Positions 1-34,297 of a stretch of 64,000 nt of DNA are shown in pieces; positions within the stretch are counted from its first letter, which is position 1, and each line of letters begins with the position of its first letter. The position numbers were made by a program, and so were the translations under genes. Below the pieces are notes generated by a model that ran no database searches, was not told where the DNA came from, and worked only from the letters and a program-made list of their open reading frames with translations. Source of the DNA: an uncultured Bacillota bacterium (GTDB lineage Bacteria; Bacillota; Clostridia; Christensenellales; UBA1242); the NCBI GenBank assembly GCA_900551705.1, contig URWY01000001.1, positions 22,273 through 86,272 on the forward strand. The letters are read 5' to 3'.

Positions 1-2963
1 AAGCAATTGAAATTGTGAATGAATGGGAGAAGCAAAATAGTGCATCTTTTGACATCTTTAAGGAATGCAAAACTTCTTTGGATATTGATTTTAACAAATT
101 AAAGAGTGGATTATTAAAGTTTGATGAAGAGGCTTTTGAGAATTTTAAAAAATTATTTAAATGTGTTAATCATGGATACCAATATAATACATTGGTAAGT
201 TCTGATTTTGCTTTAACATATACTGATGTTTCAAAGAAAATTAAGGAATATGGATTTTCAGGAATCTTCGTTATATATGATGAATTTGGTGTGTTGTTAG
301 AAAACCAAGATCAAGATTTCGTTTCAAAATTAAATAAAATACAATCTTTTGCGGAAAAGTGTGAGACATCTGAAAAAGATTCTCAGATGCATGTTTGTTG
401 TATTACGCACAAGGAAGTAACTCTTTATAGTGTTGATGGATCTCATTTAGATAGCTTCGAAAAGATAGCAGGAAGATTTAAACAAATAAGATTTGATAGA
501 TCTATGGAAGAAAACTATCAAATAATTTGTGCTGCTATTGAAAAGAGTAAGGGATATCAAGAGCTAGTATCAAAAGAATTAGAAAAAAATAACTATTTAG
601 AAAAATATAAGAAATCAAGTTTATTTAGTGCCGATCAACTGGAGTATATATTTAATAATGGTTATCCATTTAATCCATTTGCTTTATATGCATTGATTCA
701 AGTATCTGAGAAAGTTGCTCAAAACGAAAGAACTTTATTTACTTTCATGTCTGATACAGATATAAATAGTTTTAATTATTTTATAGCGAACAACAATACA
801 GGGTTATTAAATGTTCCAGCAATATATGATTATTTTGAGCCATTAATAAAAGATAATACTGAATATAGAATGTTGTGCTATAAAGTTGATGGTTTAAATA
901 AAACAATTATAAAAAGTCAAGAAAGGGATGTTATTAAATGTATAGCAATTTCTAAAATTATTAATGACAATGTAAGGTACGTTTGTAGTGATGAAAACAT
1001 TTCACTAGCTCTTAATAAATCAGAAGGTGAAGTTAAGAAAATAATTACATCTTTAATTAACGCAAATGTATTAAAAAGAAATATCAATGATGATAGTGTT
1101 GATTTTTCAGTAATAACTGACAATCAGTTTTTAACCCTTTTGGATGATACTTTCAATAGTAAATATGGATTTGAATCTGTAAGCAAATTACTAAATGAAT
1201 TTAATGAAGAAAAATATTTTGTTTCAAATCAATATAATTACGAACATAAAATGGTTAGATATTTTAGGTCTGAATATATTGAAGCTTCTGTATTGGAAAA
1301 TTTAAATTCATTGGATGTATATTTTGATCAAGAATTTTGTGATGGTCTTATAATAAATTTAGTAAATGATATAGGAATTACTCAAAAAAGAACAAAAGAA
1401 ATACTTGAGAATCTCGGATATAAAAATGTAATTATTAGATTTATAGATAAGATGATCCCTGCATTTGCAATTAAGAAAATAAGGAGATTATTTGCAGCTA
1501 AAAATTTATTAATTGATTCTGGGGCACTTTCTGAAGATGCAAAAAATACATTACCAAAATATGTGGATGATGAGATTATAGAAATAAATTCTTTTTTAAG
1601 AGATCTTACCTCCAAAGCAAAACTCCTTGCTTTAAATATTCCTGACAATAAATCTTTGTCTGGCTATATTTATCAAGCATTAAATTCGTTATACGAAAAA
1701 ACAGTAATCATAAACAATGAACAAGTTAATAAAAATGAAATATCTTCAGTAACAAATAAAGCTAGAGTAAATGTAATTGAATTAATCTTAAATAAAAATG
1801 AAGGGGAGTATTCTTCTACCTCAGCCGAAGGCACAATCTATGATAGTTTTAAAACATCAATTGATAAAAATTATGAGATTGTTGATAAAATTAAAGAATG
1901 TTTTTTAATCAATAATAAGAATAAGCTGGAATTATATGATTTAGTAGAAATGTTAAAATCTGCTCCTTACGGTATGAGAGATGGGGTAATACCTTTGTTT
2001 GTTGCAAAAGCGATTTCTGATCTTTTAGTAATAAACAACGATATAATAAAAACAATTATTTTATATAACCGAGATCTTGAGATTCCAATGAATGCATTAA
2101 ATCTATGTAAAGCATTGGCTTATCCAGAGCAATATAATATTTCATTTGAAGAAATTAATCACGATAAAATACTTATGATTAATGAGTTGATGTCTTTATT
2201 TAATTGTAAAGCATCAGACAGTTTCTCTGATAATGTTTTGAATTTGGTCAGTGCAATAAAAAATTATGTTCAAAACCTGCCTCCAATTATTATTAAAACA
2301 GGTAAAGCTGAAAATATTTTAAGTTTGTCAACAACTGCAATAAAGTTTAAAGATGAATTTTTAAAACATAACTTAAATATTCACGAATCTCTTTTAGTAA
2401 AATTGCCTAAATTATTGTCTTCACCAATTAAAGATGTATCTAAAAATATAAAAACATTATTAGAAGAATATGATAAGAAATTGGAAAAATATACACAAGA
2501 GATTATAGTTAAGGTTATTAATTCATTTGGCTCTGAAATGGATTCAATAAAATCAACATATGACCTTTGGAAAGCTCAATATCCTCAAATTAAAAATGTA
2601 ATATTTGAAAACAGAGAAAAGGCTCTTTATAAGGCATTTGAAGTTATTAAGTATAACAACAAGGACGCACTTAATTTGTTATCTTATGCTTTATGTAATT
2701 GTACAATAGAAGATTGGAATTCGCAAAGAGAAGCTGAATTTATGTCAGTGTTAGAAAGTTTTATTGATAAAGTATATAATTACGATGAGAATTCAGTTTC
2801 AAAACAAGATTTTAACGATAATAAAACTGTGATTGAGATTAGTCAACTCGGGAAAACACTTTATTCAAATTTGACAGAAATGATAGAAGAGTATGGATCA
2901 TCATTAAGTAATGAAGAGAAGGCTTCTATAATAAAAAGAATTTTAAATGAACTTATTGATTAG
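1..2963 (+). CDS. Very large NTPase-like protein, 5' end outside window (>=986 aa visible); tentatively BrxC/PglY (DUF499)-like
   Basis: Track ORF 15..2963 stays open in frame back to base 3, so the GTG at 15 is not the true start. A Walker-B-like 'GIFVIYDEFG' lies near the visible N-terminus. It is followed by 'GYPFNPFALY...VAQNERTLFTFM', which I recall as resembling the YPxHP...FQRTRGxLRL block of DUF499/BrxC ATPases (from memory, unverified). The stop TAG 2961-2963 abuts the GGAGG SD of the next gene. Confidence 0.6.
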   Translation, partial: AIEIVNEWEKQNSASFDIFKECKTSLDIDFNKLKSGLLKFDEEAFENFKKLFKCVNHGYQYNTLVSSDFALTYTDVSKKIKEYGFSGIFVIYDEFGVLLENQDQDFVSKLNKIQSFAEKCETSEKDSQMHVCCITHKEVTLYSVDGSHLDSFEKIAGRFKQIRFDRSMEENYQIICAAIEKSKGYQELVSKELEKNNYLEKYKKSSLFSADQLEYIFNNGYPFNPFALYALIQVSEKVAQNERTLFTFMSDTDINSFNYFIANNNTGLLNVPAIYDYFEPLIKDNTEYRMLCYKVDGLNKTIIKSQERDVIKCIAISKIINDNVRYVCSDENISLALNKSEGEVKKIITSLINANVLKRNINDDSVDFSVITDNQFLTLLDDTFNSKYGFESVSKLLNEFNEEKYFVSNQYNYEHKMVRYFRSEYIEASVLENLNSLDVYFDQEFCDGLIINLVNDIGITQKRTKEILENLGYKNVIIRFIDKMIPAFAIKKIRRLFAAKNLLIDSGALSEDAKNTLPKYVDDEIIEINSFLRDLTSKAKLLALNIPDNKSLSGYIYQALNSLYEKTVIINNEQVNKNEISSVTNKARVNVIELILNKNEGEYSSTSAEGTIYDSFKTSIDKNYEIVDKIKECFLINNKNKLELYDLVEMLKSAPYGMRDGVIPLFVAKAISDLLVINNDIIKTIILYNRDLEIPMNALNLCKALAYPEQYNISFEEINHDKILMINELMSLFNCKASDSFSDNVLNLVSAIKNYVQNLPPIIIKTGKAENILSLSTTAIKFKDEFLKHNLNIHESLLVKLPKLLSSPIKDVSKNIKTLLEEYDKKLEKYTQEIIVKVINSFGSEMDSIKSTYDLWKAQYPQIKNVIFENREKALYKAFEVIKYNNKDALNLLSYALCNCTIEDWNSQREAEFMSVLESFIDKVYNYDENSVSKQDFNDNKTVIEISQLGKTLYSNLTEMIEEYGSSLSNEEKASIIKRILNELID

Positions 2964-2972
2964 GAGGAATAG

Positions 2973-4088
2973 ATGATTTACTTTGACAATGCGGCGACGA
3001 CTTTTCCAAAGCCTCAATGTGTATACGATGCAGTAAATGAAGGAATGAAGAAATTTTCATTTAATGCAGGAAGAGGAAGTTATAGTGCCGCTATAGACAC
3101 TTTTAATATGATATCAGCTACAAGAGAAAAGATTGCAAACATTGTCAGAGCAAATCCTAATCAAGTAGTTTTTACAGCATCTGCAACTGAATCGTTAAAT
3201 ATTATAATTAATGGTCTTGATTTAAAAAGGGGAGATAAGGTTTATATCTCACCTTTTGAACACAATTCAATTGTAAGAACATTACATAAATGTGATGTGG
3301 AAATAAAGTTTATTCCTTTTAGCAAAAAAAATTGGAGTGTTAATTATGACAAATTAAATGATGAATTGGCAATTAACAAGCCTAAAGCTGTTATTATTAG
3401 TCATATTAGTAATGTTACCGGTTTTGAGTTGCCATATAATGAAATATTTAAGTACTCAAAAAAATATGGCGCGGTTACTGTGTTAGATTCTGCTCAAGGA
3501 TTTGGAACATATCAGGTAGATGCACGATTTGTGGATTTTGTCGTTTTTGCAGGTCATAAATCTTTATACAGTGTATTTGGTGTTGCAGGATTTATAAATA
3601 AAACAAACATCCCTTTGATTGTTTTTAAAACTGGGGGAACTGGTTCTGACTCGTTAAATTTAGACATGCCACAAGAACTCCCTGCAAAAATGGAAGCTGG
3701 TAGTCTAAATGCAGTTGCTATATACGCATTAAATAAAAGTATAGATTTCATTGTTAATAGCGATTTTGCAATAAAAAAACATGAACTAACAAGTTATTTA
3801 ATAGAAAGATTGAAGGAGCTTGATAATGTTATAATTTATTGCCCAGATGATATTGAAACCAAAGGTATAGTTGCCTTTAATATTGAAGGTTATACCTCTG
3901 ATGAGATTGGCAAAATATTGTCTTCGCAATATGATATTTGTGTAAGAACGGGATATCACTGTGCACCTTATATACATGATTTTTTAGAAGATAAAAAATA
4001 TTCTGGATGTGTTAGGGTTAGTTTAAGTGGTTTCAATACAATTGATGAAATAGATACTTTAATTGATGCAATAAATAATTTGATATAA
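2973..4088 (+). CDS. PLP-dependent cysteine desulfurase (class V aminotransferase; SufS/Csd-type active-site loop)
   Basis: N-terminal 'IYFDNAATTFPKP'. PLP-lysine motif 'FAGHKS' (Lys196, nt 3558-3560). Catalytic Cys loop 'RTGYHCAPY' (Cys330, nt 3960-3962). GGAGG SD 5 nt upstream of the ATG. Confidence 0.85.
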   Translation: MIYFDNAATTFPKPQCVYDAVNEGMKKFSFNAGRGSYSAAIDTFNMISATREKIANIVRANPNQVVFTASATESLNIIINGLDLKRGDKVYISPFEHNSIVRTLHKCDVEIKFIPFSKKNWSVNYDKLNDELAINKPKAVIISHISNVTGFELPYNEIFKYSKKYGAVTVLDSAQGFGTYQVDARFVDFVVFAGHKSLYSVFGVAGFINKTNIPLIVFKTGGTGSDSLNLDMPQELPAKMEAGSLNAVAIYALNKSIDFIVNSDFAIKKHELTSYLIERLKELDNVIIYCPDDIETKGIVAFNIEGYTSDEIGKILSSQYDICVRTGYHCAPYIHDFLEDKKYSGCVRVSLSGFNTIDEIDTLIDAINNLI

Positions 4089-4108
4089 ATTTATAGAGAG
4101 GAGGAAAG

Positions 4109-6241
4109 ATGTCTTTAAGAGAAGTTATAATAAAAAAAGAATATCGTTCTTTATTGGATAATGTTGCCAAAGAGTTTTATATTCCATTATTACAAAAAGC
4201 AGTGTTATATAAAAGAGCTGTTGGATTTTTTTCTTCATCTGTTTTAATAGAAATATCAAAAGGAATATTGGGATTAGTAAAAAATGCTGGCAAAATACAA
4301 TTGATAGCATCGCCATATTTGTCTGATGAAGATGTAGAGGCAATAAAAAATGGTTACAGTAGGCGGGAAATTGTTAGAAAGGCTGCGTTAAGAGAGTTGA
4401 AAGAACCAAGAAATGCATTTCAAGAAGAACGATTAAATTTTTTGGCAAATCTAATTGCTGATGGTATTTTGGATGTTAAAATAGCTATAACTGATACTGG
4501 TAATAAGATTGGTATGTATCATGAAAAAGTTGGGATAATTGAAGATTTGGAAGGTAATAAAGTTGCTTTTTCGGGTTCAATGAATGAGTCTGCGAACGCT
4601 CTTTTAGCTAATTATGAAACCATAGATGTATATACAAGTTGGAGTGATGATAAGGATAGAGTTGAATCAAAAGAAAAAGCCTTTGATTTAATTTGGAATA
4701 ATAATGAATCAAATATAAAAACTATTGAGTTTGAGGATATTGGAGAGGACTTTATAAAGAGATATAAACGAAATACAATTGACTATAAGGAATATTCTAC
4801 AAATGAAAACGATTGTGATAATATAGAAGAATGGAAGTTTTTTAAAGTCCCAGAAGAAGTTGATTTTTATGATTATCAGAAAGATGCTATTGACGCGTGG
4901 ATAAAAAATTCTTGTTGTGGAATTTATGATATGGCAACTGGTTCTGGTAAAACATATACAGCTCTAGGATCAATTACGAAATTGTCACAAATGTTAAATG
5001 AAGAAATTGCGATTGTAATAGTTGCGCCATATCAACATTTAGTTGAACAATGGGTTGAAGATATAAATAACTTTAATGTTAATCCAATAGTTGCTTATTC
5101 TTATAGAGGTCAAAAATGGCGACAATATTTTATCGATGCGGTGAATGCTTATAATATTGGAGCGAGGAAGAATTTCTGCATAATTACAACAAACGCGACT
5201 TTTGCAAGTGATGATTTTCAAAACATTCTAAATAAGTTAAAAAAGAATTTTTGCTTTATTGTTGATGAGGCTCATAATTTTGGTGCAACAAAATTAAGTT
5301 CATTATTACCCAAAAAAGCAAGATATAGATTGGCTCTATCTGCCACAATTGAAAGACATAGAGATGAAGAAGGTACAGCTTGTTTAAGAAAATACTTTAG
5401 TAAAACGTGTATTTCATTTAGTTTGAAGGATGCTATAAATAAAGGATTCTTAACAAGTTACTACTATCATCCAATCATTGTATATTTATCTCCTGAGGAG
5501 CTTGAAGATTACAATGAAATAACAAAAAAGATCATAAAAATGGGTGGAATAACAAAAGAAAATCTTGAAAAAAATAAAAACTTAGAGTTATTATTAATTA
5601 AAAGGGCTAGGATTGTTGCCGGGTGCAAATCAAAGGTTGATAAATTATTAGATATTATAAAACCATTTAAAGATGATAGTTATATATTAGTGTATTGTGG
5701 TGCAACCAAATATGATAATCAAGATATTTCTGATGATCAAGATATTCGTCAAATTGATGAAGTAAGTAATAGGTTGTATGGAGATTTGGGGATGAAGGTA
5801 AGAAAATTTACTTCATCAGAAAGTAAAGAAGAGAGAATAGAAATAAAAAGAATGTTTGCTACTGGCAGAGAATTGCAAGTAATAACAGCTATTAAATGTT
5901 TGGATGAGGGTGTTAATATTCCTGCAATAAAAACTGCATTTATATTGGCTAGTAGTACAAATCCAAAAGAATATATTCAAAGAAGAGGAAGGGTTTTAAG
6001 AAAATTTGAAGGGAAAGAATATGCTGAAATCTTTGACTTTATTACGTTGCCAAGACCTTTAAGTAGAGTTAGATTTTGTTCTCCAGATGAAAAATCATAT
6101 GACTTGTCACTGGTTAGGAAGGAATTTACAAGAATGATAGATTTTGCAGATACGGCACGAAATAAATTTGAAATTGATAATATTAAGTCTGAAATAGAAA
6201 GGGCTTATACAAATCTAACAGGAGGATATTTTGATGAATAA
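4109..6241 (+). CDS. Single-HKD PLD-family nuclease domain fused to SF2 (DEAH) helicase
   Basis: HKD motif 'YHEKVGIIED' followed by 'GSMNES' (aa 137-160). Helicase motif I 'MATGSGKTYTA', II 'VDEAHNFG', III 'SATIER', VI 'QRRGRVLRK'. GAGGAGG SD upstream. Confidence 0.85.
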   Translation: MSLREVIIKKEYRSLLDNVAKEFYIPLLQKAVLYKRAVGFFSSSVLIEISKGILGLVKNAGKIQLIASPYLSDEDVEAIKNGYSRREIVRKAALRELKEPRNAFQEERLNFLANLIADGILDVKIAITDTGNKIGMYHEKVGIIEDLEGNKVAFSGSMNESANALLANYETIDVYTSWSDDKDRVESKEKAFDLIWNNNESNIKTIEFEDIGEDFIKRYKRNTIDYKEYSTNENDCDNIEEWKFFKVPEEVDFYDYQKDAIDAWIKNSCCGIYDMATGSGKTYTALGSITKLSQMLNEEIAIVIVAPYQHLVEQWVEDINNFNVNPIVAYSYRGQKWRQYFIDAVNAYNIGARKNFCIITTNATFASDDFQNILNKLKKNFCFIVDEAHNFGATKLSSLLPKKARYRLALSATIERHRDEEGTACLRKYFSKTCISFSLKDAINKGFLTSYYYHPIIVYLSPEELEDYNEITKKIIKMGGITKENLEKNKNLELLLIKRARIVAGCKSKVDKLLDIIKPFKDDSYILVYCGATKYDNQDISDDQDIRQIDEVSNRLYGDLGMKVRKFTSSESKEERIEIKRMFATGRELQVITAIKCLDEGVNIPAIKTAFILASSTNPKEYIQRRGRVLRKFEGKEYAEIFDFITLPRPLSRVRFCSPDEKSYDLSLVRKEFTRMIDFADTARNKFEIDNIKSEIERAYTNLTGGYFDE

Positions 6242-6419
6242 TACCAATGAAAGCATTAACAATTTAACAAATACTATTGTGTTTGAGCCTCAAAAATTAA
6301 AAGAAATGGTATCAAGAATTTATGATGCTGAAGTTAGGAATACTAAAACAAAACAAAGAACTGAAAAACAGATGAAAGATATGATAGAAAAAATTATAGA
6401 GGAGGTTGCAAATAAATGA
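6234..6419 (+). CDS. 61-aa protein of unknown function, overlapping both neighbours
   Basis: ATG 6234 is preceded by GGAGGA (6221-6226). It overlaps the helicase 3' end by 8 nt, and its TGA overlaps the next ATG (ATGA at 6416-6419). The product is charged and K/E-rich with no recognisable motif. Confidence 0.45.
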   Translation: MNNTNESINNLTNTIVFEPQKLKEMVSRIYDAEVRNTKTKQRTEKQMKDMIEKIIEEVANK

Positions 6420-8425
6420 TTTTAAAAAAGATAAAATTTCATAACTTTAGACCATTTATTGGTGATCAAACTATAGATTTATCATCTGAAGATAAAGAAA
6501 AGAATGTTACAGTTATTTTGGGTTCTAATACATTTGGAAAAACAACATTTGTTTTATCTTTTATATGGTGTTTATATGGAGATAGTAGATTTTCTCGACC
6601 AAATGAAATTCTTAACAAGAAGGTTGAGAAGGAAATGGGGTATGGAGAACAAAAAACTGCTTCTGTAGAAATAGAATTTGAAGATGATGGTGTCTATTAT
6701 ACAGTTATTAGGTCTCAAATGTTTACAATGGGGAGTAATAGAACGCTAACAACAAATGGTAGCGATGTTAAAATGACCTATGTTGAAGATTCAATGACAA
6801 AGTCTGTTGGTAATTTAAAACATCAAGTAGAAGAAGCAATAGAGGCTATTTTGCCAAAAGATTTATCACCATTTTTCTTCTTTGAAGGTGAAAAAGGCAA
6901 TGAAATTCCAAAAGCGGATTTAGGTAAATCGGTTAGAACCTTATTGGGGCTTGAGGCTTTTGAAAAAATGAGAGAACATATTCATGGTTCGGGTTCAAAC
7001 TACAATACAGATAGCGTTATGGGTAGATATGCGGCTAAGATAAGTGAAAAAAGTGGAAAGGATGCAAAAAATGCTCTTCAAAATAAAAAACAGGCAGAAG
7101 AAGAGCTTCAAAGTACTAATACTAGAATTAAAGAAATAGAAAATGATATAAAAGATTATTCTGACAAGATTGAAATGATAAATACAGAGTTAAGGAATGC
7201 TGAACCTACTAAAGCTTTACAAGAGAAAAGAGATTCTATACTTGCAGAAACACAAAGATTAAAAGAAAGTTTGAATTCTAGTATGAAAAAATTCCTAACA
7301 TCATTTAGTAAAAATTCATTACCATTGTTAGTTTCATCGTTTACAGAAAAAGCCAGAGAAAGATTAAAGGAAATGGATATTGCGGATAAAGGAATAAAGG
7401 GAATAGAAGCACCTGCCATTTACGAATTATTGAAAAGAGGAACTTGTCTTTGTGGGACCCAACTAAATGAAGGTAGTATTGCCTATAAAAACGTTAAAGA
7501 TTATATAGATTATATTCCACCTAAAAACGTAGGAACTCTTGCGGCTGAAATGTTAGAAAATATTGACAAATTTGACGAATGCGCCAAAGATTATGTGGAA
7601 GAATTTGAAGAATTATACAAAGAAATTCAAAAGATTAAAACAAGAATTAATGATTTGGAAAGAGAAGAAAAAAGAGTTTTGTTTGAGATTTCAAGAATTG
7701 GTAGTATAGACACTTCAAATTTAGAAAGTGATTTGTCTTCGTATAATTCAAGAATTAAAGATTTAAAAGAAGAAAAAGAATTAAAACTAATAAAAATTGG
7801 ATCTTTACAAAATAGAATTGAAAATGCGGAAAAAGATTTTAATACAGCTCAGAGCAAAAATGTGTCTAATGAAAAATTTCAAACATACTTCAAATATGCG
7901 GAATCAATATATATTTGGTTAAATAACAATTATAATTCAAAAGAAAACACAATGAGAGAGCGTTTAAGCAAATATATTAATGAGCTATATAACGAAATGT
8001 ATAGCGGAACTCGTGATGTTTCAATTGATAAAAATTATAATATTCACATGTTATATGAAGGTGAAGAGAGTGCGACTACTGGATTATTAAAGACCATCCA
8101 ATATTGTGCATATGTAGCATCTTTGGTAAAATTATCTAAAGAGGTTATGTTAGAGAGAAATAATGATGATCCGTTATCGGATCCTCAAAATAAAAGTGAA
8201 AAATACCCATTAGTTTTTGATGCTGTATTTTCTACTGCAGATGAAGAACATACACCTAAAATTGCAAAAACATTGGCTGAAAGTACAGAACAACTTGTTT
8301 TTGCTGTGATGAGAAAAGACTGGACATTAGCAGAATCTGGCTTAATTGGAAAGGTTGGTAGATTTTATGAGCTTGAAAAAATAGATGAGTGGGAAGTAAA
8401 AATTGTGGAGGTGAATAATGGATAA
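6416..8425 (+). CDS. DndD/SspC-like SMC-type ABC ATPase with central Cys-x-Cys
   Basis: N-terminus 'MILKKIKFHNFRPFIGDQTIDL...VILGSNTFGKTTFVLSFIWCLYG' (Walker A, Lys42) is typical of DndD/SbcC-type ATPases. Long heptad-like K/E/L-rich middle region. 'GTCLCGTQL' at aa 342-350 of 669 (nt 7445-7453). C-terminal Walker-B-like 'YPLVFDAVFSTADEEH'. Confidence 0.75.
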   Translation: MILKKIKFHNFRPFIGDQTIDLSSEDKEKNVTVILGSNTFGKTTFVLSFIWCLYGDSRFSRPNEILNKKVEKEMGYGEQKTASVEIEFEDDGVYYTVIRSQMFTMGSNRTLTTNGSDVKMTYVEDSMTKSVGNLKHQVEEAIEAILPKDLSPFFFFEGEKGNEIPKADLGKSVRTLLGLEAFEKMREHIHGSGSNYNTDSVMGRYAAKISEKSGKDAKNALQNKKQAEEELQSTNTRIKEIENDIKDYSDKIEMINTELRNAEPTKALQEKRDSILAETQRLKESLNSSMKKFLTSFSKNSLPLLVSSFTEKARERLKEMDIADKGIKGIEAPAIYELLKRGTCLCGTQLNEGSIAYKNVKDYIDYIPPKNVGTLAAEMLENIDKFDECAKDYVEEFEELYKEIQKIKTRINDLEREEKRVLFEISRIGSIDTSNLESDLSSYNSRIKDLKEEKELKLIKIGSLQNRIENAEKDFNTAQSKNVSNEKFQTYFKYAESIYIWLNNNYNSKENTMRERLSKYINELYNEMYSGTRDVSIDKNYNIHMLYEGEESATTGLLKTIQYCAYVASLVKLSKEVMLERNNDDPLSDPQNKSEKYPLVFDAVFSTADEEHTPKIAKTLAESTEQLVFAVMRKDWTLAESGLIGKVGRFYELEKIDEWEVKIVEVNNG

Positions 8426-8984
8426 CATTATTGAAAAGGGTTCTAGGAATGGTTTGTTTACCAGAGAAATTGAACTAAATAATAGATATGCCACAATTAT
8501 AAGGTATTTAAAAGAGGAAGTTAATATATTCTCATCTTTTAGAGATGCGTACTTAAATGCAGCAATAATTGGTTTTTTAAAAAATACTAATACTTCTAAT
8601 TTTAAATTAAATGAAAATGTAAAACCAGCATCAATATTTCCTAATGAATTATCAGCAAGAAGGGCTGATTTAAGATTTGTTTTTAGAATAATAATGGCTG
8701 TTAAAGATGAAGATGATTATAAAATTGATGATTACATGAATAGAACATTTAGAGACGGCTCTGAAGAAGATTCATATAGTGGATTAGATGAAAAAATGGA
8801 AATATTCAATACATATGTTTGTAAGGGATTAGATTATCTTTATAATAAGTTTGAGAATATTCATAACCAAGAAGAAATTGTTAATACTTTATATGAAATA
8901 TTGAGAGATATTGGTATAGAATCTGGTTTGGTTGTTACAGATGGATTACCTGATTTTGATGTTAATGATATTATAGTTGAATAG
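8418..8984 (+). CDS. 188-aa hypothetical protein (operon member)
   Basis: ATG overlaps the upstream stop by 8 nt and has a GGAGGTG SD. No catalytic motif recognised. 'FSSFRDAYLNAAIIGF' vaguely recalls the small helical proteins annotated as dnd-system-associated (from memory, unverified). Confidence 0.55.
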   Translation: MDNIIEKGSRNGLFTREIELNNRYATIIRYLKEEVNIFSSFRDAYLNAAIIGFLKNTNTSNFKLNENVKPASIFPNELSARRADLRFVFRIIMAVKDEDDYKIDDYMNRTFRDGSEEDSYSGLDEKMEIFNTYVCKGLDYLYNKFENIHNQEEIVNTLYEILRDIGIESGLVVTDGLPDFDVNDIIVE

Positions 8985-9020
8985 TATTCGAAAGGATAAA
9001 ATAAAAACGAAGGAGAAATT

Positions 9021-9923
9021 ATGGAGGAATTTTTTGATTTCACATTTGATGACATAAAAAAAATACATGTAGATAATTTTTGCCAACGAGATCAAATGGT
9101 ATCTTCTAATTTCTTAGCATATAAAGAAAATTTTTTATATAAAAAACAAGAAATAGATGAATCCTTGTTGGGAGAATCTTTTCCGCCTATTGAAGAGATT
9201 CCGAATAAGTTTACTGATTTGGTTTTTGATAACAATTCAAGATATTATGTTGAAGATTTAACATTGAGAAATTATTTGTTAGAAAATACTACACCATACA
9301 AAATTGAAATTTTTAACAATGTTATAGAGGAATCTTCATGGGGGAATTTATTATGTAAAATTTCTATACTTTTATTGACACTATATCCTGATAAAAGAGA
9401 AAATATTTGTGAGTTTAAATGTAATTGGACAAAGTCTGTTATGTTTAGTCAAAGCATGAAGACAAACTTTAAATCTATATTTAAGGGGTTATATATAAAT
9501 TGTAATCATACAGCTGTACATGCGTGTTGGTTTTTACAAGACATTTTAGATTTTTTTGAAATTGATAAATCTAAAGTTTTATTTATAATTCATAGGCCGT
9601 GTGGGTCTGAAGACACAGAAATTAAACAAAAATTAAAGAACTTTTTCGTTCGAGGATTTGCCTATTATTTGATTACTAATAAAAATAAAACACTAGAGAA
9701 AGCAAAAAAAATAATCAATGTAATAGATAAACATTTGAATCCTATTTTGGCGGGTTTGTCAAAGAGCTATAATGATTTATTTTTGTTTAATAACAATATG
9801 ATTGTTATTAATTACACAAAAAAGGTTAGAGATAAATTATCAACAATTTCATCTTATAGTGATGATAATAAACGAATTTTAAATAAATATTTGGATTATT
9901 TGGTAGCGTACTATAAGATATAA
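9021..9923 (+). CDS. 300-aa hypothetical protein (last gene of operon)
   Basis: AAGGAG SD 7 nt upstream. Same strand, 36 nt after the previous gene. Followed by a strong terminator. No recognisable motif. Confidence 0.55.
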   Translation: MEEFFDFTFDDIKKIHVDNFCQRDQMVSSNFLAYKENFLYKKQEIDESLLGESFPPIEEIPNKFTDLVFDNNSRYYVEDLTLRNYLLENTTPYKIEIFNNVIEESSWGNLLCKISILLLTLYPDKRENICEFKCNWTKSVMFSQSMKTNFKSIFKGLYINCNHTAVHACWFLQDILDFFEIDKSKVLFIIHRPCGSEDTEIKQKLKNFFVRGFAYYLITNKNKTLEKAKKIINVIDKHLNPILAGLSKSYNDLFLFNNNMIVINYTKKVRDKLSTISSYSDDNKRILNKYLDYLVAYYKI

Positions 9924-9939
9924 GTGGGAATAAAATTAT

Positions 9940-9971
9940 TCATTGTCTCTCTTTTTGAGATAAAAGAAAAA
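9940..9971. repeat. 32-bp direct repeat, copy 1 (tcattgtctctctttttgAgataaaagaaaaa)
   Basis: 31/32 identical to 12276-12307. Starts 16 nt after the stop of the 300-aa gene and lies upstream of terminator 9992-10027. Confidence 0.9.
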
Positions 9972-9991
9972 TAAAAAATTTAATAGAAATT

Positions 9992-10027
9992 AAAAGAAGA
10001 GTTCAAATGTTGAGCTCTTCTTTTTTA
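9992..10027 (+). terminator. Rho-independent terminator of the 7-gene operon
   Basis: aaaagaagagttcaa-atg-ttgagctcttctttttt: a stem of about 14 bp with one mismatch, followed by a T-run. Confidence 0.7.
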
Positions 10028-10064
10028 TACTTTGATTATAAAATTTTAATTAAATTTTGAAAAT

Positions 10065-12269
10065 TTGAGAAAATTATTACAAATGTGTGTTATACTGTCT
10101 TTGTCAAGTATATTAAAGGATAGGATAAATACGAAAAAAAGTCCACGATGTTTATTTAATAGTGATTTTGAAAATTTTTTAAGTTTAGATACAAGTGCAA
10201 TACTAGGAACTTTATGTGATAGTTATCATGGAACTGCGCTTACTACTACAATAGAAGCATGGAAATCTGAAATTGGAATATTGAAAAACGTTGTTTCAAA
10301 ATTAAATGATGACAGAGGTCAGATTGTTTTTGAGTATGATATTCCACGTTTGGGTAAAAGAATTGACTCTGTACTACTTTATAGGGGTATAGTATTTTGT
10401 CTTGAATTTAAAGTGGGTGAGTCTAAAGTTTTAGAAATGGATGTTGACCAAGTATTGGATTATGCTTTAGATTTAAAGAACTTCCATAAACTTAGCAGAG
10501 ATAAAGTTATTGCGCCGATTTTAATCGCAACAAAATATACAAATAGAACAGATACTATACAAATGTCAGTTTATGATGATAGCGTAATTAATCCACTGGT
10601 TACAGGTGAATTTGGAGTTTTAGAGTTAATAGAAAAAGTTTTAGATAGATTTCCAAATGAAGAAATTGTAGATGCTAATTGGATAATAAGCCCATATGCT
10701 CCAACGCCAACAATTGTTGAAGCGGCTAAAAAACTTTATGAAAATCATTCGGTTGAAGATATTACAAGACATGAAGCAGATGATGTTTCAACTGATAGAA
10801 CAATTAAATATATCCTTGATGTAATTCAAAAAAGTAAAACCAATAGAGAAAAGAGTATTTGTTTTGTAACGGGTGTTCCTGGTGCAGGAAAAACTTTGGT
10901 TGGACTTGATATTGCTGTTCGACAAACATATCAAGGAAGTGATAAGCCAGTTGAAGATGAAGGTGCTGTTTATCTTTCAGGAAATGGTCCATTGGTTGCT
11001 GTTTTGAATGAAGCTTTGGCGAAAGATAATTTCAAGAAGTGTAAAGATAAAGGTGAAAATAAGAAATTATCAGATTCTCGCAGAGAGGTTGGAAAATTTA
11101 TTCAAATAATTCATCGTTATCGTGATAATATGCTAGCAAAAATAAAAAATCCAGTAGAAAATGGAGTGCTGGAAATTGATCCTGAAAAGGCTATAAAACT
11201 TGCTGAATCTGGTTATGGTGAAGTAGAACACGTTGCTATTTTTGATGAAGCACAACGTTCATGGACAAAGAAAAGATTGGCTGATTATTTAAAAAGAGGT
11301 GGAACGTATGGAAATAAATTAAAAGTTCCAAACTTTCCATTATCTGAGGCTGCGTTTTTGATTTGGCCATTAGATCAACGTGAAGACTGGGCAACAATAG
11401 TTTGTTTGGTTGGTGGCGGTCAAGAAATTAACACAGGTGAAGCGGGAATATCTGAATGGATAAAAGCTTTGAATGATATATTTCCACATTGGAAAGTTCA
11501 TATTTCTCCAAAGCTAACAGAGCCTGAATACGCAGAGGGTAAAGTTAATGAATTGTTAGAAAAGAATAATAATGTTTCATATTCTGATGATTTACATTTG
11601 AGTGTTTCACTTCGTTCGTATAGAGCAGAAAAATTATCCGCATTTGTTCATTCAATGCTTTCATTTGAATCTAATGCTGCAGAACTTTATAATGAAATAA
11701 AAGATAAGTATCCAATAGTTTTAGCCAGGGATATGGAAAAAGCTAAAAAGTGGTTGCACGAAAAAGTTAGAGGGACTGAACGTACGGGTGTTTTAGTAAC
11801 AAAAGAATCTGCAAGATTTAAACCACTTGGTATACATATACTTGAAGCGGGTGATGAAAATGCAGTGCACTGGTTCCTTGAAGATAAAGTTGATACTAGA
11901 TCATCAAACTATTTAGAAGATGCTGCAACAGAAATTCAAGTTCAAGGTTTGGAACTTGATTATACTTGCGTGTTGTGGGATGCAGATATGAGATGTAATA
12001 ACGACAAATGGCGTTATTATAAATTTAATGGACAAACAAAATGGGTTGAACAAACACCTGATACAGAAAATAAGCAAGAATTAATTAAATACATGTTAAA
12101 CGCATATAGGGTTCTTTTAACACGTGCTAGAGTAGGTATGGTTATTTGTGTTCCAACAGGTAATCCAAATAAAAATCCAAGCGGATATTGGGAAGATAGT
12201 ACTAGGTTGCCTGAATATTATGATGGAACTTATGAGTATTTAAAAAGTTTAGGTATTGAAGAAATATAA
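10065..12269 (+). CDS. PD-(D/E)xK nuclease-like N-domain fused to DUF2075/SF1-type P-loop ATPase
   Basis: 'GKRIDSVLLYRGIVFCLEFKVGE' (D...ExK). Walker A 'GVPGAGKT'. Walker B 'VAIFDEAQRSW'. C-terminal 'AYRVLLTRARVGMVICV' (SF1 motif VI-like). The true start is uncertain (TTG 10065, ATG 10083 or TTG 10101). Confidence 0.75.
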   Translation: MRKLLQMCVILSLSSILKDRINTKKSPRCLFNSDFENFLSLDTSAILGTLCDSYHGTALTTTIEAWKSEIGILKNVVSKLNDDRGQIVFEYDIPRLGKRIDSVLLYRGIVFCLEFKVGESKVLEMDVDQVLDYALDLKNFHKLSRDKVIAPILIATKYTNRTDTIQMSVYDDSVINPLVTGEFGVLELIEKVLDRFPNEEIVDANWIISPYAPTPTIVEAAKKLYENHSVEDITRHEADDVSTDRTIKYILDVIQKSKTNREKSICFVTGVPGAGKTLVGLDIAVRQTYQGSDKPVEDEGAVYLSGNGPLVAVLNEALAKDNFKKCKDKGENKKLSDSRREVGKFIQIIHRYRDNMLAKIKNPVENGVLEIDPEKAIKLAESGYGEVEHVAIFDEAQRSWTKKRLADYLKRGGTYGNKLKVPNFPLSEAAFLIWPLDQREDWATIVCLVGGGQEINTGEAGISEWIKALNDIFPHWKVHISPKLTEPEYAEGKVNELLEKNNNVSYSDDLHLSVSLRSYRAEKLSAFVHSMLSFESNAAELYNEIKDKYPIVLARDMEKAKKWLHEKVRGTERTGVLVTKESARFKPLGIHILEAGDENAVHWFLEDKVDTRSSNYLEDAATEIQVQGLELDYTCVLWDADMRCNNDKWRYYKFNGQTKWVEQTPDTENKQELIKYMLNAYRVLLTRARVGMVICVPTGNPNKNPSGYWEDSTRLPEYYDGTYEYLKSLGIEEI

Positions 12270-12275
12270 AGGTGC

Positions 12276-12307
12276 TCATTGTCTCTCTTTTTGCGATAAA
12301 AGAAAAA
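12276..12307. repeat. 32-bp direct repeat, copy 2 (tcattgtctctctttttgCgataaaagaaaaa)
   Basis: 31/32 identical to 9940-9971. Starts 6 nt after the stop of the DUF2075-like gene and lies upstream of terminator 12367-12397. Confidence 0.9.
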
Positions 12308-12366
12308 AGTGGCTGAAAAATCTGGCAATAAAATTGAATTTTTAAAAATAATTTATATGGCTAAAT

Positions 12367-12397
12367 CTCTGATAAAATCAGAGGTTTTCTTTTTTTA
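12367..12397 (+). terminator. Rho-independent terminator downstream of the DUF2075-like gene
   Basis: ctctgat-aaa-atcagag 7-bp stem followed by gttttcttttttt. Confidence 0.65.
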
Positions 12398-12456
12398 TGT
12401 AAAGAAATCCAGTGTAAAAAGTGACTTATAAAACCCCTTATATAGAGGAGGTTTTT

Positions 12457-12489
12457 ATGAGTAAGAAGAATAAAATCGGAAGAATATAA
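12457..12489 (+). other. 10-codon micro-ORF (MSKKNKIGRI) with consensus SD
   Basis: GAGGAGG (12445-12451), 5 nt, then ATG. Followed by a GC-richer hairpin-forming stretch and a terminator-like hairpin at 12639-12665 (actggg-aaa-cccagt plus a T-rich tail). Confidence 0.3.
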
Positions 12490-12711
12490 AAGCTTAATTT
12501 ACTAAGCAGGAAAAGGAGTGACGTAAATTGTTTTTTATGTGGCTAAAACCCGCTAGATATGGACACTTTTAGTGCCGTCACGCATTTTGTACGTGCCAGC
12601 ACATTGACTCAATTTGCATCTCTCCGCTTTTCGCCACAACTGGGAAACCCAGTTTGTCTTTATTGAACATTTTATTTAATAAGAAAAAATTTCATTGCCC
12701 CTCTAATTGCA

Positions 12712-12978
12712 ATGAAAAGGAAATCTTATATGAATAAAAACATACAAATAATAAATTTACTAAATAGAGATGAGAAAATAACAAAGATTGAAATAGATAA
12801 AACTACTTTAGAAATAGGTGCTTATTTTTTAAAAAACATACTTAAAAATTTTTTGAGAGATAATGGAGATATAGAGAAAATTAAAAAAGAATATACAGGT
12901 TTTGATTGGACTTGTGAAAGCGTTTGTAATATGTGTGTTTGTGATAATTCAAAAAGGAGTAAAACAAGTGAAAAGTAA
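12712..12978 (+). CDS. 88-aa ORF upstream of and overlapping the recombinase start (possible accessory/directionality factor; may be non-coding)
   Basis: ORF-track entry only, with no motif. Its ATG sits inside an 8-bp inverted repeat (ttcattgc-N10-gcaatgaa, 12691-12716). Confidence 0.3.
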   Translation: MKRKSYMNKNIQIINLLNRDEKITKIEIDKTTLEIGAYFLKNILKNFLRDNGDIEKIKKEYTGFDWTCESVCNMCVCDNSKRSKTSEK

Positions 12979-14571
12979 AGTGGTAATATATGCAAGATTC
13001 AGTTCTCATAGCCAAACAGAACAATCAATTGAAGGACAACTCCGTGAATGTTATGAGTTTGCAAAACGAAATGATTATGTGGTTGTAAATGAGTATATAG
13101 ACCGAGCAATTTCTGGTATGACTGATAATCGACCAGCATTCTTGCAAATGATTGAAGATAGCAAAAAGAAAGAGTTTGAATATGTGCTAGTTTACCAATT
13201 AGATAGATTTGCAAGAAGTAGATATGATAGTGCTAATTACAAAGCAAAGCTAAAAAAGAATGGAGTTAGAGTATTGTCTGCAAGAGAAAATATTTCAGAT
13301 GATGCTAGCGGTGTGCTAATGGAATCTGTGCTAGAAGGTATGGCTGAATACTATTCCAAAGAACTTGGTCAAAAAGTAAGACGAGGAATAAATGAAAGTT
13401 TAATCAAAGGTAACTACATTGGTGGAAGTGTTAATCTAGGATACAAGATTATTGACAAAAAATGGGCGGTAGAACCGCAAGAAGCAATCCTTGTGGAAGA
13501 AGTATTCAAACAGTATGCTAATGGTAAATTTGCAAAAGAAATTTGCGATGATTTGAATAAAAATGGATTTAAGAACAAACAAGGCAAAAAGTTTACAGTT
13601 GAGATAATTGCGAAAATGCTTCGCAATAGAAAATATATTGGTGAATTTAATTGTAAAGGAATAGTTTATAATGATATTGTTCCGCCAATCATAAGCAAGG
13701 AATTATTTGATAAATACAATAAAATTATGGATCAACATAAACATAGACAAAAGCACAAAAATAGAGTTGATGATTACATATTAAGTAGCAAGCTATATTG
13801 TGGATATTGTGGTTGCACTATGACAGCTGAATCTGGTAATGGAAAATGTGGGACAAAACATAGATATTATAAATGTAGGAATCGTAAGCATTTAATAAAA
13901 GAATGCGAAAGTAAAACAATTAGAAAGGATTATATTGAAAATCTAATTGTTGATGTAACAAAGAAACATATTCTAACAAAATCAAGAGTAGATCAAATAG
14001 CAAACTTAATTGCAAAACAATATAATGCCGAATTGGGAGAAAATTTAGAACTTGCAAATTTACAGGCACAATTAAATAGATTGACAAACAAATTGAGTCT
14101 TTAATTACTGCGATTATGAATGGATTAAATTCCAAATCGATTGAATTGAAAATTAAACAATTAGAAAATGAAAAATCCATTTTAACAGAAAAAATGGTTT
14201 TATCAGAATCGCACCAAACGAAGCCAATAAAACCAGAAGATATAAAACACTTTATATATTATTTTATGAGTAAGGATTACTCAAATCACAATGAAAGAGT
14301 GGAGTTCCTTACCAAGTTTATATCAAAAATAATTTATTATAATGACAGACTAATAATTATTTATAATACAAAACAAAACGATAGCGAAGAAATAGTAATT
14401 AACAGCAAAGAAGATATAGAAAAGATTCAGAATACAATAAAAAATTTAGAAGAAAAAAAGTCGCTTGGCGAAATTCACGCCGAACGACAGGTTAATGGCG
14501 GGACAGTAAGGGACTCGAACCCCAGGATGTTTTCACATCAATGGTTTTCAAGTTTTTTACGCACGAGTTAG
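12968..14571 (+). pseudogene. Large serine recombinase, interrupted by a -1 frameshift (two ORFs 12968..14104 and 14080/14116..14571)
   Basis: GTG 12968 has an AAGGAG SD. Resolvase catalytic domain 'VVIYARFSSHSQ...EGQ...', recombinase domain and zinc ribbon 'CGYCGCTM...YYKCRN'. The reading frame stops at 14102-14104 but continues in the -1 frame ('IDKQIESLITAIMNGLNSKSIELKIKQLENEK', a typical LSR coiled coil). The indel must lie within 14080-14101. The joined length of about 534 aa is normal for this family. Confidence 0.8.
14496..14552 (-). pseudogene. Degenerate 3' half of a tRNA-Ser gene (CCA end to anticodon loop); att-type remnant
   Basis: Aligns with 15480-15535 of the intact tRNA-Ser. 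About 41/44 identical over the T-arm, variable arm and anticodon loop, while the acceptor strand has diverged. Similarity ends exactly at ...ggttttcaag (anticodon loop). Confidence 0.8.
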
Positions 14572-14722
14572 TTCGAGTAATTTTAGTTAAAAGTAAGTCA
14601 TTTTGAAAAACCAAAACTGCAAGAGTTTCCCGCATAAAACCAGCGACTTCAAACCTTTTTTTTGTGCAAGTATGATATCATTTGAAGTTAGTTTAGTCAA
14701 GCCTATTAAAAATCAAATTTCT

Positions 14723-14815
14723 AACCCATTTGTTAGAACAAACCGTTTCATAACCACTGCCTGCTATGCTCACTTCGGGAGACCTGAATTCCCATGGGAA
14801 AAAATTAAACCATAA
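14723..14815 (+). pseudogene. Remnant of the 3' end of an S-adenosylmethionine synthetase (metK) gene
   Basis: The tail of track ORF 14603..14815 reads 'TTACYAHFGRPEFPWEKIKP'. Compare the conserved MetK C-terminus TAAYGHFGR..FPWEK (from memory). The upstream part of the ORF has no MetK similarity. Confidence 0.45.
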
Positions 14816-14870
14816 ATGAAAATCTAACATTTTTGTTTGTTCTTTAGAAAAAAGAGTTTATAATGAATTA

Positions 14871-15446
14871 ATGGAAAAAACATTTAAACTTATTAAAATA
14901 ACTAAAGAAAATGTAATTTTGGCAACCGAATTTCAGTCAAGCATTTTTCAAGAGGAATGCGGGTATGGAAGTTTTATGTATTCAATTAAAAAGGAAAGCG
15001 ACTATTTTTCATACTATTTAGCTTATGATAACGAAAACTTGATTGGTATAACAGGTATATATTCATTTGAAAAAGTTGAAGAAACAAATTCGTTATGGCT
15101 TGGATGGTTTGGAGTTTCTCCAATCTATCGCGGAAAAGGCTATGGGAAAGCCTTGTTAAAGCAGACAATTGACATGGTTAAAGGATATGCGAAAAAAGAT
15201 CCTAGAATTAAATATTTTAGACTTTACACATCATCAAGAGACAACCCAGTTGCATGCGAAATGTATCGCAAAGTAATGGATTTTGAAGAAAAATATGAAT
15301 GCGATGGTGATTTTAATTATGACGGAACTTGTCTTATTTTTACCAAATGTATTTGTAAAGATTGCGAAAATCCGCTTTGGAACGATCGATTTTTAAATTT
15401 AAGCAGCATAACAGAAATGGAAAATATTAAGCCCCCAACAATATAA
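14871..15446 (+). CDS. GNAT-family N-acetyltransferase
   Basis: Acetyl-CoA motif A 'VSPIYRGKGYGKALL'. Size 191 aa. Followed by a terminator. Confidence 0.8.
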   Translation: MEKTFKLIKITKENVILATEFQSSIFQEECGYGSFMYSIKKESDYFSYYLAYDNENLIGITGIYSFEKVEETNSLWLGWFGVSPIYRGKGYGKALLKQTIDMVKGYAKKDPRIKYFRLYTSSRDNPVACEMYRKVMDFEEKYECDGDFNYDGTCLIFTKCICKDCENPLWNDRFLNLSSITEMENIKPPTI

Positions 15447-15454
15447 TTATAAAA

Positions 15455-15479
15455 AAGTCTTCAGTTTGAAGACTTTTAT
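15455..15479. terminator. Hairpin terminator between the GNAT gene and the tRNA-Ser 3' end
   Basis: aagtcttca-gtt-tgaagactt 9-bp stem flanked by A-run and T-run, so usable in both directions. Confidence 0.6.
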
Positions 15480-15567
15480 TGGCGCAGAGTTAGGGATTCG
15501 AACCCCAGGATGCTTTCACATCAACGGTTTTCAAGACCGCCGCTTTCGACCGCTCAGCCAACTCTGC
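15480..15567 (-). tRNA. tRNA-Ser (anticodon UGA), class II with long variable arm, encoded CCA
   Basis: The reverse complement folds as GCAGAGT/ACTCTGC acceptor, anticodon loop CUUGAAA, T-loop GGTTCGAATCC and GCCA 3' end. A TTGACA-17-TAAAGT promoter lies upstream on the minus strand. Confidence 0.9.
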
Positions 15568-15701
15568 AAAGCATGATAACTTTATCATATTAATTTTATA
15601 TTGTCAATTATTTTTTGATAAAAAATTTTTAAATTTGGTTTAAAACAAATTATTATTGACAAATATTTAGTTTTGATATAAAATATAATTAGAGGTTAAA
15701 T

Positions 15702-16061
15702 ATGAAAGAAGTTAGATTTGGTAAAAATGTTTATAAAATTGAAAATTTATATAAAGGCTTATCTTTGGACAAAAGCGGTAATTATGTTGTTCAAAGGATG
15801 AATAGCACATCAAGCCGCGTTGGCATTTCAATGGACGCCATGGTAAAAATTGCTGCATCATTTGATAGCAGTGCAATGAATGTTAAAAATAAACTTATGA
15901 TTTATAAAAATGTAAATAAATTGATTGGCGAAGAAAAAGACGATGTCAAAAAGTTTGCATTTATGAAAGCAATTCAAACAATTATGGACGAAAAAGAGTT
16001 GGAACAAAATGCCGAGAAATCAACTGACAGAACAGTATTTTATGGCGGAAGAATTCAATAA
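15702..16061 (+). CDS. Hypothetical protein (119 aa)
   Basis: TTGACA-17-TAAAAT promoter and GAGG SD upstream, terminator downstream. No motif recognised. Confidence 0.5.
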   Translation: MKEVRFGKNVYKIENLYKGLSLDKSGNYVVQRMNSTSSRVGISMDAMVKIAASFDSSAMNVKNKLMIYKNVNKLIGEEKDDVKKFAFMKAIQTIMDEKELEQNAEKSTDRTVFYGGRIQ

Positions 16062-16104
16062 TTTATTAAAATAACAAAAAAAACAAGCAATTTTGCTTGT
16101 TTTT

Positions 16105-17232: not shown

Positions 17233-17346
17233 GTTTTTATTATACTTTAATTTAAGATTAATTTCAATTATTTTGTCATTTAATTTAAAAGATTTATTTG
17301 TTTATTTGATTAAATATGGTATATTCTAATTAAGAAAGGAGAAAAA

Positions 17347-19590: not shown

Positions 19591-19753
19591 AAAAATTAAA
19601 TAAAAAATAAAAAATATTAAAAAAATATATAAAAATGTTTTGAAAATTAATTTTAATATGTTAATATTTGATTAGTTTATAAGAGATTAACAGCAATTTT
19701 GAATATATTTTCAAGAAAAGTTTAATCTAATATAAAATACGCGGAGGTGAAAA

Positions 19754-20152: not shown

Positions 20153-20165
20153 GATAAAACAATTT

Positions 20166-20196
20166 AAAAGAGCAGCAAAATGCTGCTCTTTTTTAT
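20166..20196 (+). terminator. Rho-independent terminator after the pilin-like gene
   Basis: aaaagagcagca-aaa-tgctgctctttttt. Confidence 0.7.
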
Positions 20197-34294: not shown

Positions 34295-34297
34295 CGA

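Follow-up and report, generated by a model that had tools for sequence, protein, structure and literature searches.

The window analysed here is a 64,000-nucleotide (nt) stretch of contig URWY01000001.1 (metagenome assembly GCA_900551705.1, positions 22,273 to 86,272 of the forward strand). At its left end it carries a defence island of Ssp, Pbe and PDC-S41 genes, followed by a pseudogene for a large serine recombinase (LSR), a displaced 3' half of a tRNA-Ser(UGA) gene, a GNAT acetyltransferase gene and an intact tRNA-Ser(UGA) gene (Table 1). The half tRNA is probably the attB-side relic of an LSR integration at the 3' end of a tRNA-Ser gene, with the GNAT "islet" between the two tRNA copies belonging to the core chromosome and the strain-variable block ending at position 14717. 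An earlier interpretation made from the letters of the window alone (here called the sequence-only reading) had taken the two tRNA copies as the brackets of an inserted GNAT islet, and the half tRNA as the right boundary of the defence island. The paired copies and the tie between a serine recombinase and a tRNA are upheld by the comparisons reported below, which move the island edge away from the tRNA copies and would place the recombinase crossover at the acceptor end, not at the anticodon loop.

A half tRNA-Ser at the end of a serine recombinase gene

The intact, resident tRNA-Ser(UGA) has the features expected of a tRNA-Ser, with a cloverleaf fold, a long variable arm, a UGA anticodon, a paired acceptor stem (GCAGAGT/ACTCTGC), G73 and an encoded CCA. 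A search for repeats throughout the window aligned 14509-14552 with 15492-15535 in the same orientation at 41/44 positions (93.2%, blastn E=3e-13), as the sequence-only reading had described, and a 20-mer from the T-arm occurs 2 times in the window against 0 expected from 100 shuffled windows. No third tRNA-Ser copy was found in the window by either blastn or the 20-mer count. The similarity stops after ..GGTTTTCAAG, the 5' edge of the anticodon loop on the tRNA strand; past this point the fragment continues with TTTTTTACG and the gene with ACCGCCG. On the tRNA strand the fragment thus consists of the anticodon loop (CTTGAAA), variable arm, T-arm and encoded CCA. On the plus strand these parts map as TGG (CCA) at 14496-98, C (G73) at 14499, an extra G at ~14500, the acceptor GGACAGT at 14501-07, the T-arm at 14508-24, the variable arm at 14525-40, the 3' strand of the anticodon stem at 14541-45 and the anticodon loop at 14546-52. 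The fragment has no 5' half, and it received no tRNA call from ARAGORN nor from Rfam at E<=1. The two copies are not simple duplicates, a further point on which the sequence-only reading was right: the acceptor part is ACTGTCC plus one extra C in the fragment versus ACTCTGC in the gene, and by inspection the T-stem of the fragment has an internal T-T mismatch. With the recombinase core discounted, 5 positions differ between the fragment and the resident 3' half, one of which creates this mismatch, and the variable arms are 1 base apart.

The resident gene has an unusual C2-G71 pair, which gives it a 3' end of TGCGCCA. A half tRNA in another LSR locus (L112, 11553-11621, described below) equals the resident gene in T-arm and acceptor, except for a recombinase-type TCCGCCA end. 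With its C2-G71 pair flipped, the resident gene may be poorly suited as a target for the recombinase.

The fragment begins where the recombinase gene ends. The LSR contains the domains PF00239, PF07508 and PF13408, with an N-terminal serine motif, VIYARFSSHSQTEQS, that is invariant in the family alignment. It occupies frame 2 from 12968 to 14095 and frame 1 from ~14074 to 14571, with a frameshift near 14073-14080. A tblastn search with an intact homologue of 96% identity (P0001) returned two high-scoring segment pairs in different frames, extending in frame 2 to 14095 and then in frame 1 to 14502. An alternative genetic code was rejected as the cause of the split, since the two parts lie in different frames and are not divided by an in-frame stop. 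The frameshift indicates that the island is now immobile. The 82% identical LSR of locus L114 (3171-4771) is also split, into two open reading frames (ORFs) of 121 and 409 amino acids (aa), so that decay of the recombinase recurs. At 14502, where the CCA end of the fragment lies, the conserved part of frame 1 in the window closes with ..AERQVNGG; from there the reading frame stays open, antisense to the fragment, as far as 14571.

A block within these last codons, AACGAC(A/G)...TGGCGG, is conserved among the window and the loci L031, L114, L112 and L245, whose LSRs are 48-96% identical, and the sequences part right after it. On the plus strand, TGGCGG corresponds to the CCGCCA-3' end of a tRNA. 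Among relatives with LSRs 82-96% identical, shared sequence runs no further than TGGCGG(G/A)GAC and then gives way to different DNA, contrary to the earlier supposition that the element carries its own tRNA 3' end. In L031, a 468-kb scaffold of a spore-forming Firmicute with a 96% identical LSR, the shared ..GAACGACAGGTTAATGGCGG is followed after TGGCGG by a complete tRNA-Ser(CGA), as called by ARAGORN. The corresponding ..GAACGACAGGTTTATGGCGGGAC of L114, with junction TGGCGGGAC, leads into non-tRNA DNA with phage-like genes (a dCMP deaminase gene and an Apyc1-like gene). In L112 and L245, two unrelated loci with LSRs of ~48-50% identity, the same core leads into further tRNA-Ser(UGA) halves whose variable arms differ strongly; these are cut at CAAG/TTTTTCC and CAAG/TCTTTGA, respectively (the slash marks the cut), the same anticodon-loop edge as in the window, with T-rich DNA after it. 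Because the element does not determine which DNA follows the core, the tRNA body is best read as target-side DNA, and by this comparison only the last tRNA bases (about CCGCCA) appear to travel with the element. The junction type of the window and L114 has one G more than that of L031, and a tRNA formed at such a core would have an extra C and would probably be defective.

The arrangement in L114 bears on where within the tRNA end the crossover falls. There, the motifs GACA and TGTC lie symmetrically about GTCC/CGCC, and a T-loop-like sequence, GATTGAAC, is found ~5 bp further from the core than is GATTCGAAC in tRNAs. A difference in spacing of this kind between attP and attB is reportedly known from serine integrases, and is said to have been described by Rutherford et al. 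in 2013. Together, the spacing and the dyad symmetry would place the LSR crossover at tRNA positions ~71-73, at the acceptor/CCA end, and not at the anticodon-loop breakpoint pointed out by the sequence-only reading.

Junctions of this kind are found throughout the recombinase family. LSR homologues are very numerous, and after a conserved ..FKRxxxGG their tails read GGExGIRTPG.FH.NGFQDRRFRPLS. A tail of the GGExGIRTPG.FH. type is the antisense translation of tRNA-Ser(UGA); the tail of homologue P0016, for example, is GGEIGIRTPGCFHINGFQDRRFRPLSHLS, compared with GAELGIRTPGCFHINGFQDRRFRPLSQLC from the window tRNA in antisense. In a survey of 120 homologue clusters, whose C-terminal tails were sorted roughly by tRNA-like translation, the LSR reading frame enters a tRNA antisense in at least 52, a result that bears out the proposed tie between serine recombinase and tRNA across the family. 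Tails running through the anticodon region (UGA, CGA, GGA and GCU types) account for 38 clusters, tails reaching the T-arm only for 12, and half tRNAs for 2. Another 42 stop at most 5 residues after the conserved GG (..GI and a stop), which would fit a TTTGAACC T-loop supplying the stop codon; non-tRNA and unclassified tails make up 13 clusters each. Among LSRs that are 42-46% identical, the one at L034 (9072-10872) reads into a complete tmRNA (Rfam, 167.9 bits) and the one at L064 (10001-11529) overlaps a tRNA-Lys(CTT). L033 and L037 end in TGGCGGAGAG.. at contig ends.

These junctions suggest a route by which the fragment may have formed. The Ssp/Pbe/PDC-S41 island would have been carried by an LSR element with its attachment core inside the last recombinase codons, and members of the LSR family would recombine with the outermost 3' bases of tRNA-Ser genes (acceptor positions 71-73/CCA). 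The element would give the tRNA only about (C)GCCA, so that the frame of an integrated LSR would run antisense into the host tRNA. The fragment would accordingly represent the B-arm of an old LSR junction, with a hybrid acceptor composed of ACTGT from the target and CC-CGCCA from the core, and the half tRNA would once have been a whole target gene. Its variable arm, being near-identical to the resident one, indicates that the target was a tRNA-Ser(UGA) from the same species or a near relative.

Island-free strains and the edge of the variable block

Look-ups with HflX and the LysR homologue retrieved 10 loci without the island (L002 and L236-L244, together representing 25 contigs), which are 95-99% identical to the window right of the island. 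Comparison with relatives in which the locus is unoccupied, proposed by the sequence-only reading as a check, did yield an empty site, though one that matches neither tRNA copy: it reads ..TAAACGACGA/TTTTCTAACCC.., with ..TAAACGACGA as the LysR-side flank, and lies in the divergent spacer between the GNAT and LysR genes. All 10 loci keep 14718-15479, with the same GNAT gene (99.5% identical in L002) and the same relic of a metK C-terminus, and the resident tRNA-Ser(UGA) is unchanged in sequence; beyond the metK relic they continue with a divergent LysR gene, an M60 peptidase gene, prmC and prfA. The fragment and the 165 bp to its right are absent from every one of them. The presence of the GNAT gene and metK relic in all island-free loci indicates that the "islet" is not the variable unit; the GNAT region is fixed chromosome, not an insert that some strains have and others lack. 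The fragment falls within the variable block, whose edge is at 14717/14718, 165 bp to the right of the fragment, and not at the fragment itself as the sequence-only reading had it. The empty site faintly resembles the outer motifs of the LSR site.

The 165 bp of island-specific DNA matched nothing elsewhere; an extension of the metK relic and a likeness to the P-arm side of L114 were considered for it, and neither was supported. The metK relic comprises ~21 codons just inside the DNA common to all strains, L002 included, beside the variable junction, and no metK gene lies near it. The predicted GNAT protein has 191 aa in the window and L002 and 227 aa in most of L236-L244, where 36 additional N-terminal residues are encoded upstream of 14871. 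In all strains, the GNAT stop codon and the tRNA 3' end are separated by a strong hairpin (15451-15478) bordered by runs of A and T, probably a terminator that works in both directions. Right of the tRNA follow a 119-aa gene, hflX and core genes. Next to HflX in other Gastranaerophilales species is a tRNA-Leu, not a tRNA-Ser. One of the island-free loci, L239 (1290-1680), has the tRNA-Ser 5' acceptor strand GGGAGAT instead of GCAGAGT, with a tRNA-Cys and an epimerase gene upstream in place of the 119-aa gene and hflX, which marks a second point of rearrangement at this tRNA.

Single-nucleotide polymorphism (SNP) counts are 71 between the window and L002, 96 between the window and L236, and 94 between L002 and L236. 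The window is therefore no further from the island-free strains than these are from each other, which weakly favours insertion of the block over its shared deletion.

Competing histories of the half tRNA

Several points weigh against reading the fragment simply as the relic of an LSR junction. The breakpoint at the anticodon loop, identical in three loci, is not accounted for by LSR chemistry, and the combination of an LSR crossover at the 3' end with a cut at the loop, the same in L112 and L245, suggests that a second site-specific event took place. The edge of the variable block is 165 bp away from the half tRNA, which the block includes, so that the present insertion point is not an LSR junction. 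Arrival of the block as a unit also leaves its nearness to the resident tRNA-Ser(UGA) unexplained, a coincidence with a ~1-in-1000 chance per 2-Mb genome. The left island end and its junction fall outside the window, and the element offers no complete set of attL, attR, attB and attP; the crossover position is deduced from sequence comparison and dyad symmetry.

Nearness and breakpoint alike would follow from tandem accretion in place, a possible history, if on balance an unlikely one. An element X would have entered the anticodon loop of the tRNA-Ser(UGA), bringing its own 3' half, and decayed to what is now 14553-15535, with the 165 bp, the metK relic, the GNAT gene and the new tRNA 3' half; the fragment would be the displaced host half, the LSR island would have settled at its CCA end, and the island-free strains would descend from one deletion of island, half tRNA and 165 bp. 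Here, too, the fragment is taken as the target arm of the LSR, and only the history differs from that of the preferred reading. It accounts for the distance of only 0.93 kb between the copies, for their near-identical variable arms and for the loop-edge breakpoint, which recurs in L112 and L245. The anticodon loop is reportedly a classical sublocation for islands of tyrosine integrases, as Williams is said to have set out in 2002. An intact tRNA gene (tDNA) with a displaced 3' fragment is the signature of such islands (PMC4383910). By inspection, the resident 5' strand would pair with the fragment at four of the five acceptor positions that derive from the host (66-70): 66, 67, 68 and 70 fit, whereas G69 clashes with G4, as does A42 with C28. 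Positions 71-72 of the fragment are replaced by the LSR core, and given its internal T-T mismatch as well, decay is inseparable from foreign origin in this pairing comparison. Against accretion, no integrase or mobile-element gene lies between the copies, and no intact tRNA or integrase was seen beyond the halves in L112 and L245. The deletion must moreover be assumed, given that all island-free strains have the GNAT gene and metK relic and a uniform junction 165 bp off the fragment; those strains do not form a clade apart from the window, and the SNP counts point, weakly, the other way. Two pattern scans of viral contigs for a half-tRNA element that could supply the loop breakpoint found no real half tRNA, and relatives of the GNAT gene were absent from viral contigs.

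If the half tRNA had instead been carried by the element as the P arm of its attP, captured from the target or mimicking it, the succession of LSR, core, half tRNA and T-run would be an unrecombined attP, and the island would have come by another route. The recurrence of this layout with T-rich DNA in three LSR lineages, the position of the half tRNA within the variable block and the need for LSR P arms to resemble B arms would all suit such a history, which nevertheless seems improbable. The closest junction, that of L114, has a non-tRNA, dyad-symmetric P arm that looks like a real attP; within one LSR lineage the next DNA may be a whole UGA tRNA, a whole CGA tRNA, a half UGA tRNA or non-tRNA sequence; and the variable arms of the half tRNAs track host tRNAs and not LSR phylogeny, with the window half matching the resident arm. 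There is equally little to expect from a history with two tandem tRNA-Ser(UGA) genes ~1 kb apart, in which the LSR island entered the left copy, the extra C made it dispensable or defective, its 5' half was lost by ordinary deletion and the island-free strains lost the copy wholly. Such a pair would explain the nearness and the similar variable arms, and a window-type junction, by adding a C (ACTGTCC-C-GCCA), should indeed damage a tRNA 3' end; yet no strain with two intact copies was seen, and random deletion leaves the same breakpoint in L112 and L245 unexplained. That the source is a metagenome assembly and that tRNA genes are conserved might raise the suspicion of chance similarity or of a chimera assembled at a repeated tRNA sequence. 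This can be set aside almost entirely in view of the alignment E-value, the lack of a second match in any of the 100 shuffles (0/100), the occurrence of LSR-tDNA architecture in dozens of independent clusters, and a second assembly (ERR209454_2247) that is 100% identical to the window over 4871-19789, the half-tRNA arrangement and the frameshift included.

The preferred reading, an LSR integration relic at a tRNA-Ser 3' end, may be part of a wider picture that is offered tentatively and is doubtful as a whole. A broad clade of gut-bacterial LSRs would be specialised for tDNA 3' ends, namely those of tRNA-Lys, tmRNA and every tRNA-Ser isoacceptor, with attP inside their own reading frame, and displaced or truncated tRNA-Ser(UGA) halves, cut at the anticodon loop by a second site-specific system, would serve as landing pads for defence islands, sparing the working tRNA. 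The flipped 2-71 pair of the resident gene (TGCGCCA, not TCCGCCA) could protect it.

Island cargo, related elements and significance

The features of the locus are collected in Table 1. PADLOC matches to SspC, SspA/DndA, PbeA and PbeC are strong, and the 61-, 188- and 300-aa ORFs received no assignment. The full-length SspC homologue has 1141 aa, and in L115, a relative found through the SspC homologue, sspB/sspD, neither of which is present in the window, lie upstream; the L115 contig ends before the LSR. Exact-protein look-ups of SspA, PbeA and PbeC gave no match, a look-up of the 61-aa ORF led only to short contigs, and one of LysR only to island-free loci. Segments 9940-14520 (the recombinase module) and 3594-4072 (the sspA end) of the window are 96% identical in DNA to 6972-11553 and 1-479 of L031, and the middle module differs, being Pbe in the window versus helicase/HATPase_c_3/PLD genes and DndB in L031. 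With the window placed as Gastranaerophilales-like (human gut) and L031 as a spore-forming Firmicute, on which this argument rests, the identity suggests a recent transfer between phyla with modular exchange of cargo.

Table 1. Positions of the island, attachment-site and flanking features, in window coordinates unless another locus is named
Feature	Position	Strand	Basis
Defence cargo overall	15..12269	+	PADLOC, Pfam
SspC, N-terminus cut by window edge	15-2963	+	PADLOC/Pfam
SspA/DndA	2973-4088	+	PADLOC/Pfam
PbeA	4109-6241	+	PADLOC/Pfam
61-aa ORF	6234-6419	+	
PbeC	6416-8425	+	PADLOC/Pfam
188-aa ORF and 300-aa ORF	between PbeC and helicase in list order	+	
PDC-S41 Schlafen-type helicase	10065-12269	+	PADLOC/Pfam
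Conserved 82-aa ORF overlapping LSR start	12730..12978	+	copies of 87% (L031) and 65% (L114) identity in the same position
LSR pseudogene	12968..14571	+	Pfam Resolvase, Recombinase, Zn_ribbon_recom
Element-side (P') arm and attachment-site core, GAACGACAGGTTAATGGCGGG	14482..14502	+	within last LSR codons (..AERQVNGG)
Relic 3' half of tRNA-Ser(UGA)	14496-14552	-	41/44 identity to 15492-15535
Island-specific DNA, 165 bp, starting TTTTTT	14553..14717	.	absent from L002 and L236-L244
Right boundary of strain-variable block	14717..14718	.	homology lost exactly here in 10/10 island-free loci
metK C-terminus relic (..TTACYAHFGRPEFPWEKIKP and stop)	14750..14815	+	PF02773 S-AdoMet_synt_C, E=0.014, last 24 profile positions
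GNAT acetyltransferase gene ("islet")	14871..15446	+	Pfam Acetyltransf_1
Intact resident tRNA-Ser(UGA)	15480-15567	-	ARAGORN; Rfam RF00005, 56.7 bits
Half tRNA-Ser(UGA) in other LSR loci	L112 11553-11626; L245 ~2240-2310		junction comparison

The 82-aa ORF that overlaps the LSR start had no Pfam or PADLOC hit and may be an accessory or directionality factor. In annotated phage and plasmid collections no LSR relative above 43% identity was found, and both the LSR core and the empty-site flank were absent from viral contigs. Elsewhere in the window, a type IV secretion pilin-like gene and a gene for a VirD4-type coupling protein lie beside glnS (19754-22283) and are shared with the island-free strains, and a tRNA-Ala(UGC) and a tRNA-Ile(GAU) stand 3 bp apart (34218-34374).

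The recombinase shares its domain architecture with the well-studied enzymes of phiC31, Bxb1, A118, SPbeta (SprA) and SCCmec (Ccr), and also resembles them in the short, dyad-like sites beside the recombinase gene and the small core common to attP and attB. Those enzymes target protein-coding genes or intergenic sites. In the present family, by contrast, it is tDNA 3' ends that appear to be targeted, and the recombinase frame crosses the site. An LSR from Roseburia phage Shimadzu (bioRxiv 10.1101/575076; LR596903.1) is similar in that its att site is located within the 3' end of the gene for the integrase, the last 22 aa change on integration and a second copy occurs in a tRNA; its attP region, CAATGGCGCGAAGCCGAACCCGG, resembles a tRNA 3' end, and the element likewise comes from a gut Firmicute. 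It differs in belonging to a phage and not to a defence island, in an LSR only ~35% identical to this family, in a primary site that is not described as a tRNA in the text consulted, and in the lack of any reported tRNA-Ser specificity. A serine recombinase with a predicted tRNA-Met site is known from Paracoccus phage vB_PamS_Pami6 (PMC6536676), a single alphaproteobacterial case with a different tRNA. The integrase of phage mv4 of Lactobacillus delbrueckii does target a tRNA-Ser 3' end (bioRxiv 10.1101/2023.11.06.565760), but it belongs to the tyrosine recombinases, which are unrelated proteins and differ in their chemistry.

The locus as a whole recalls an Islander-type tDNA island (PMC4383910), in that an intact tRNA is accompanied by a direct repeat of its 3' portion, which stops at the anticodon loop, and by a defence island near by. 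It departs from that type in having no integrase between the copies and a serine enzyme outside the bracket, in that the DNA between the copies is kept in empty-site strains, and in that the element would give only the last few tRNA bases in place of a long 3' segment. The Islander paper names tyrosine recombinases as the only known tDNA targeters (PMC4383910), and in the later TIGER/Islander papers searched there is no mention of serine enzymes at tDNAs.

A serine-recombinase family that moves phosphorothioation-type islands between phyla appears to use the last bases of tRNA-Ser, while tDNA targeting is usually taken as the hallmark of tyrosine integrases. Programs that detect islands by matching tDNA fragments to tyrosine integrases would mis-delimit such islands, as happened here, where a fossil island whose recombinase is broken is bounded at 14717, not by the tRNA copies. 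Serine integrases with a short target found bacteria-wide would be useful tools for genome engineering. For the biology of these elements, the relic half tRNAs would stand as a record of their competition at a single tRNA.

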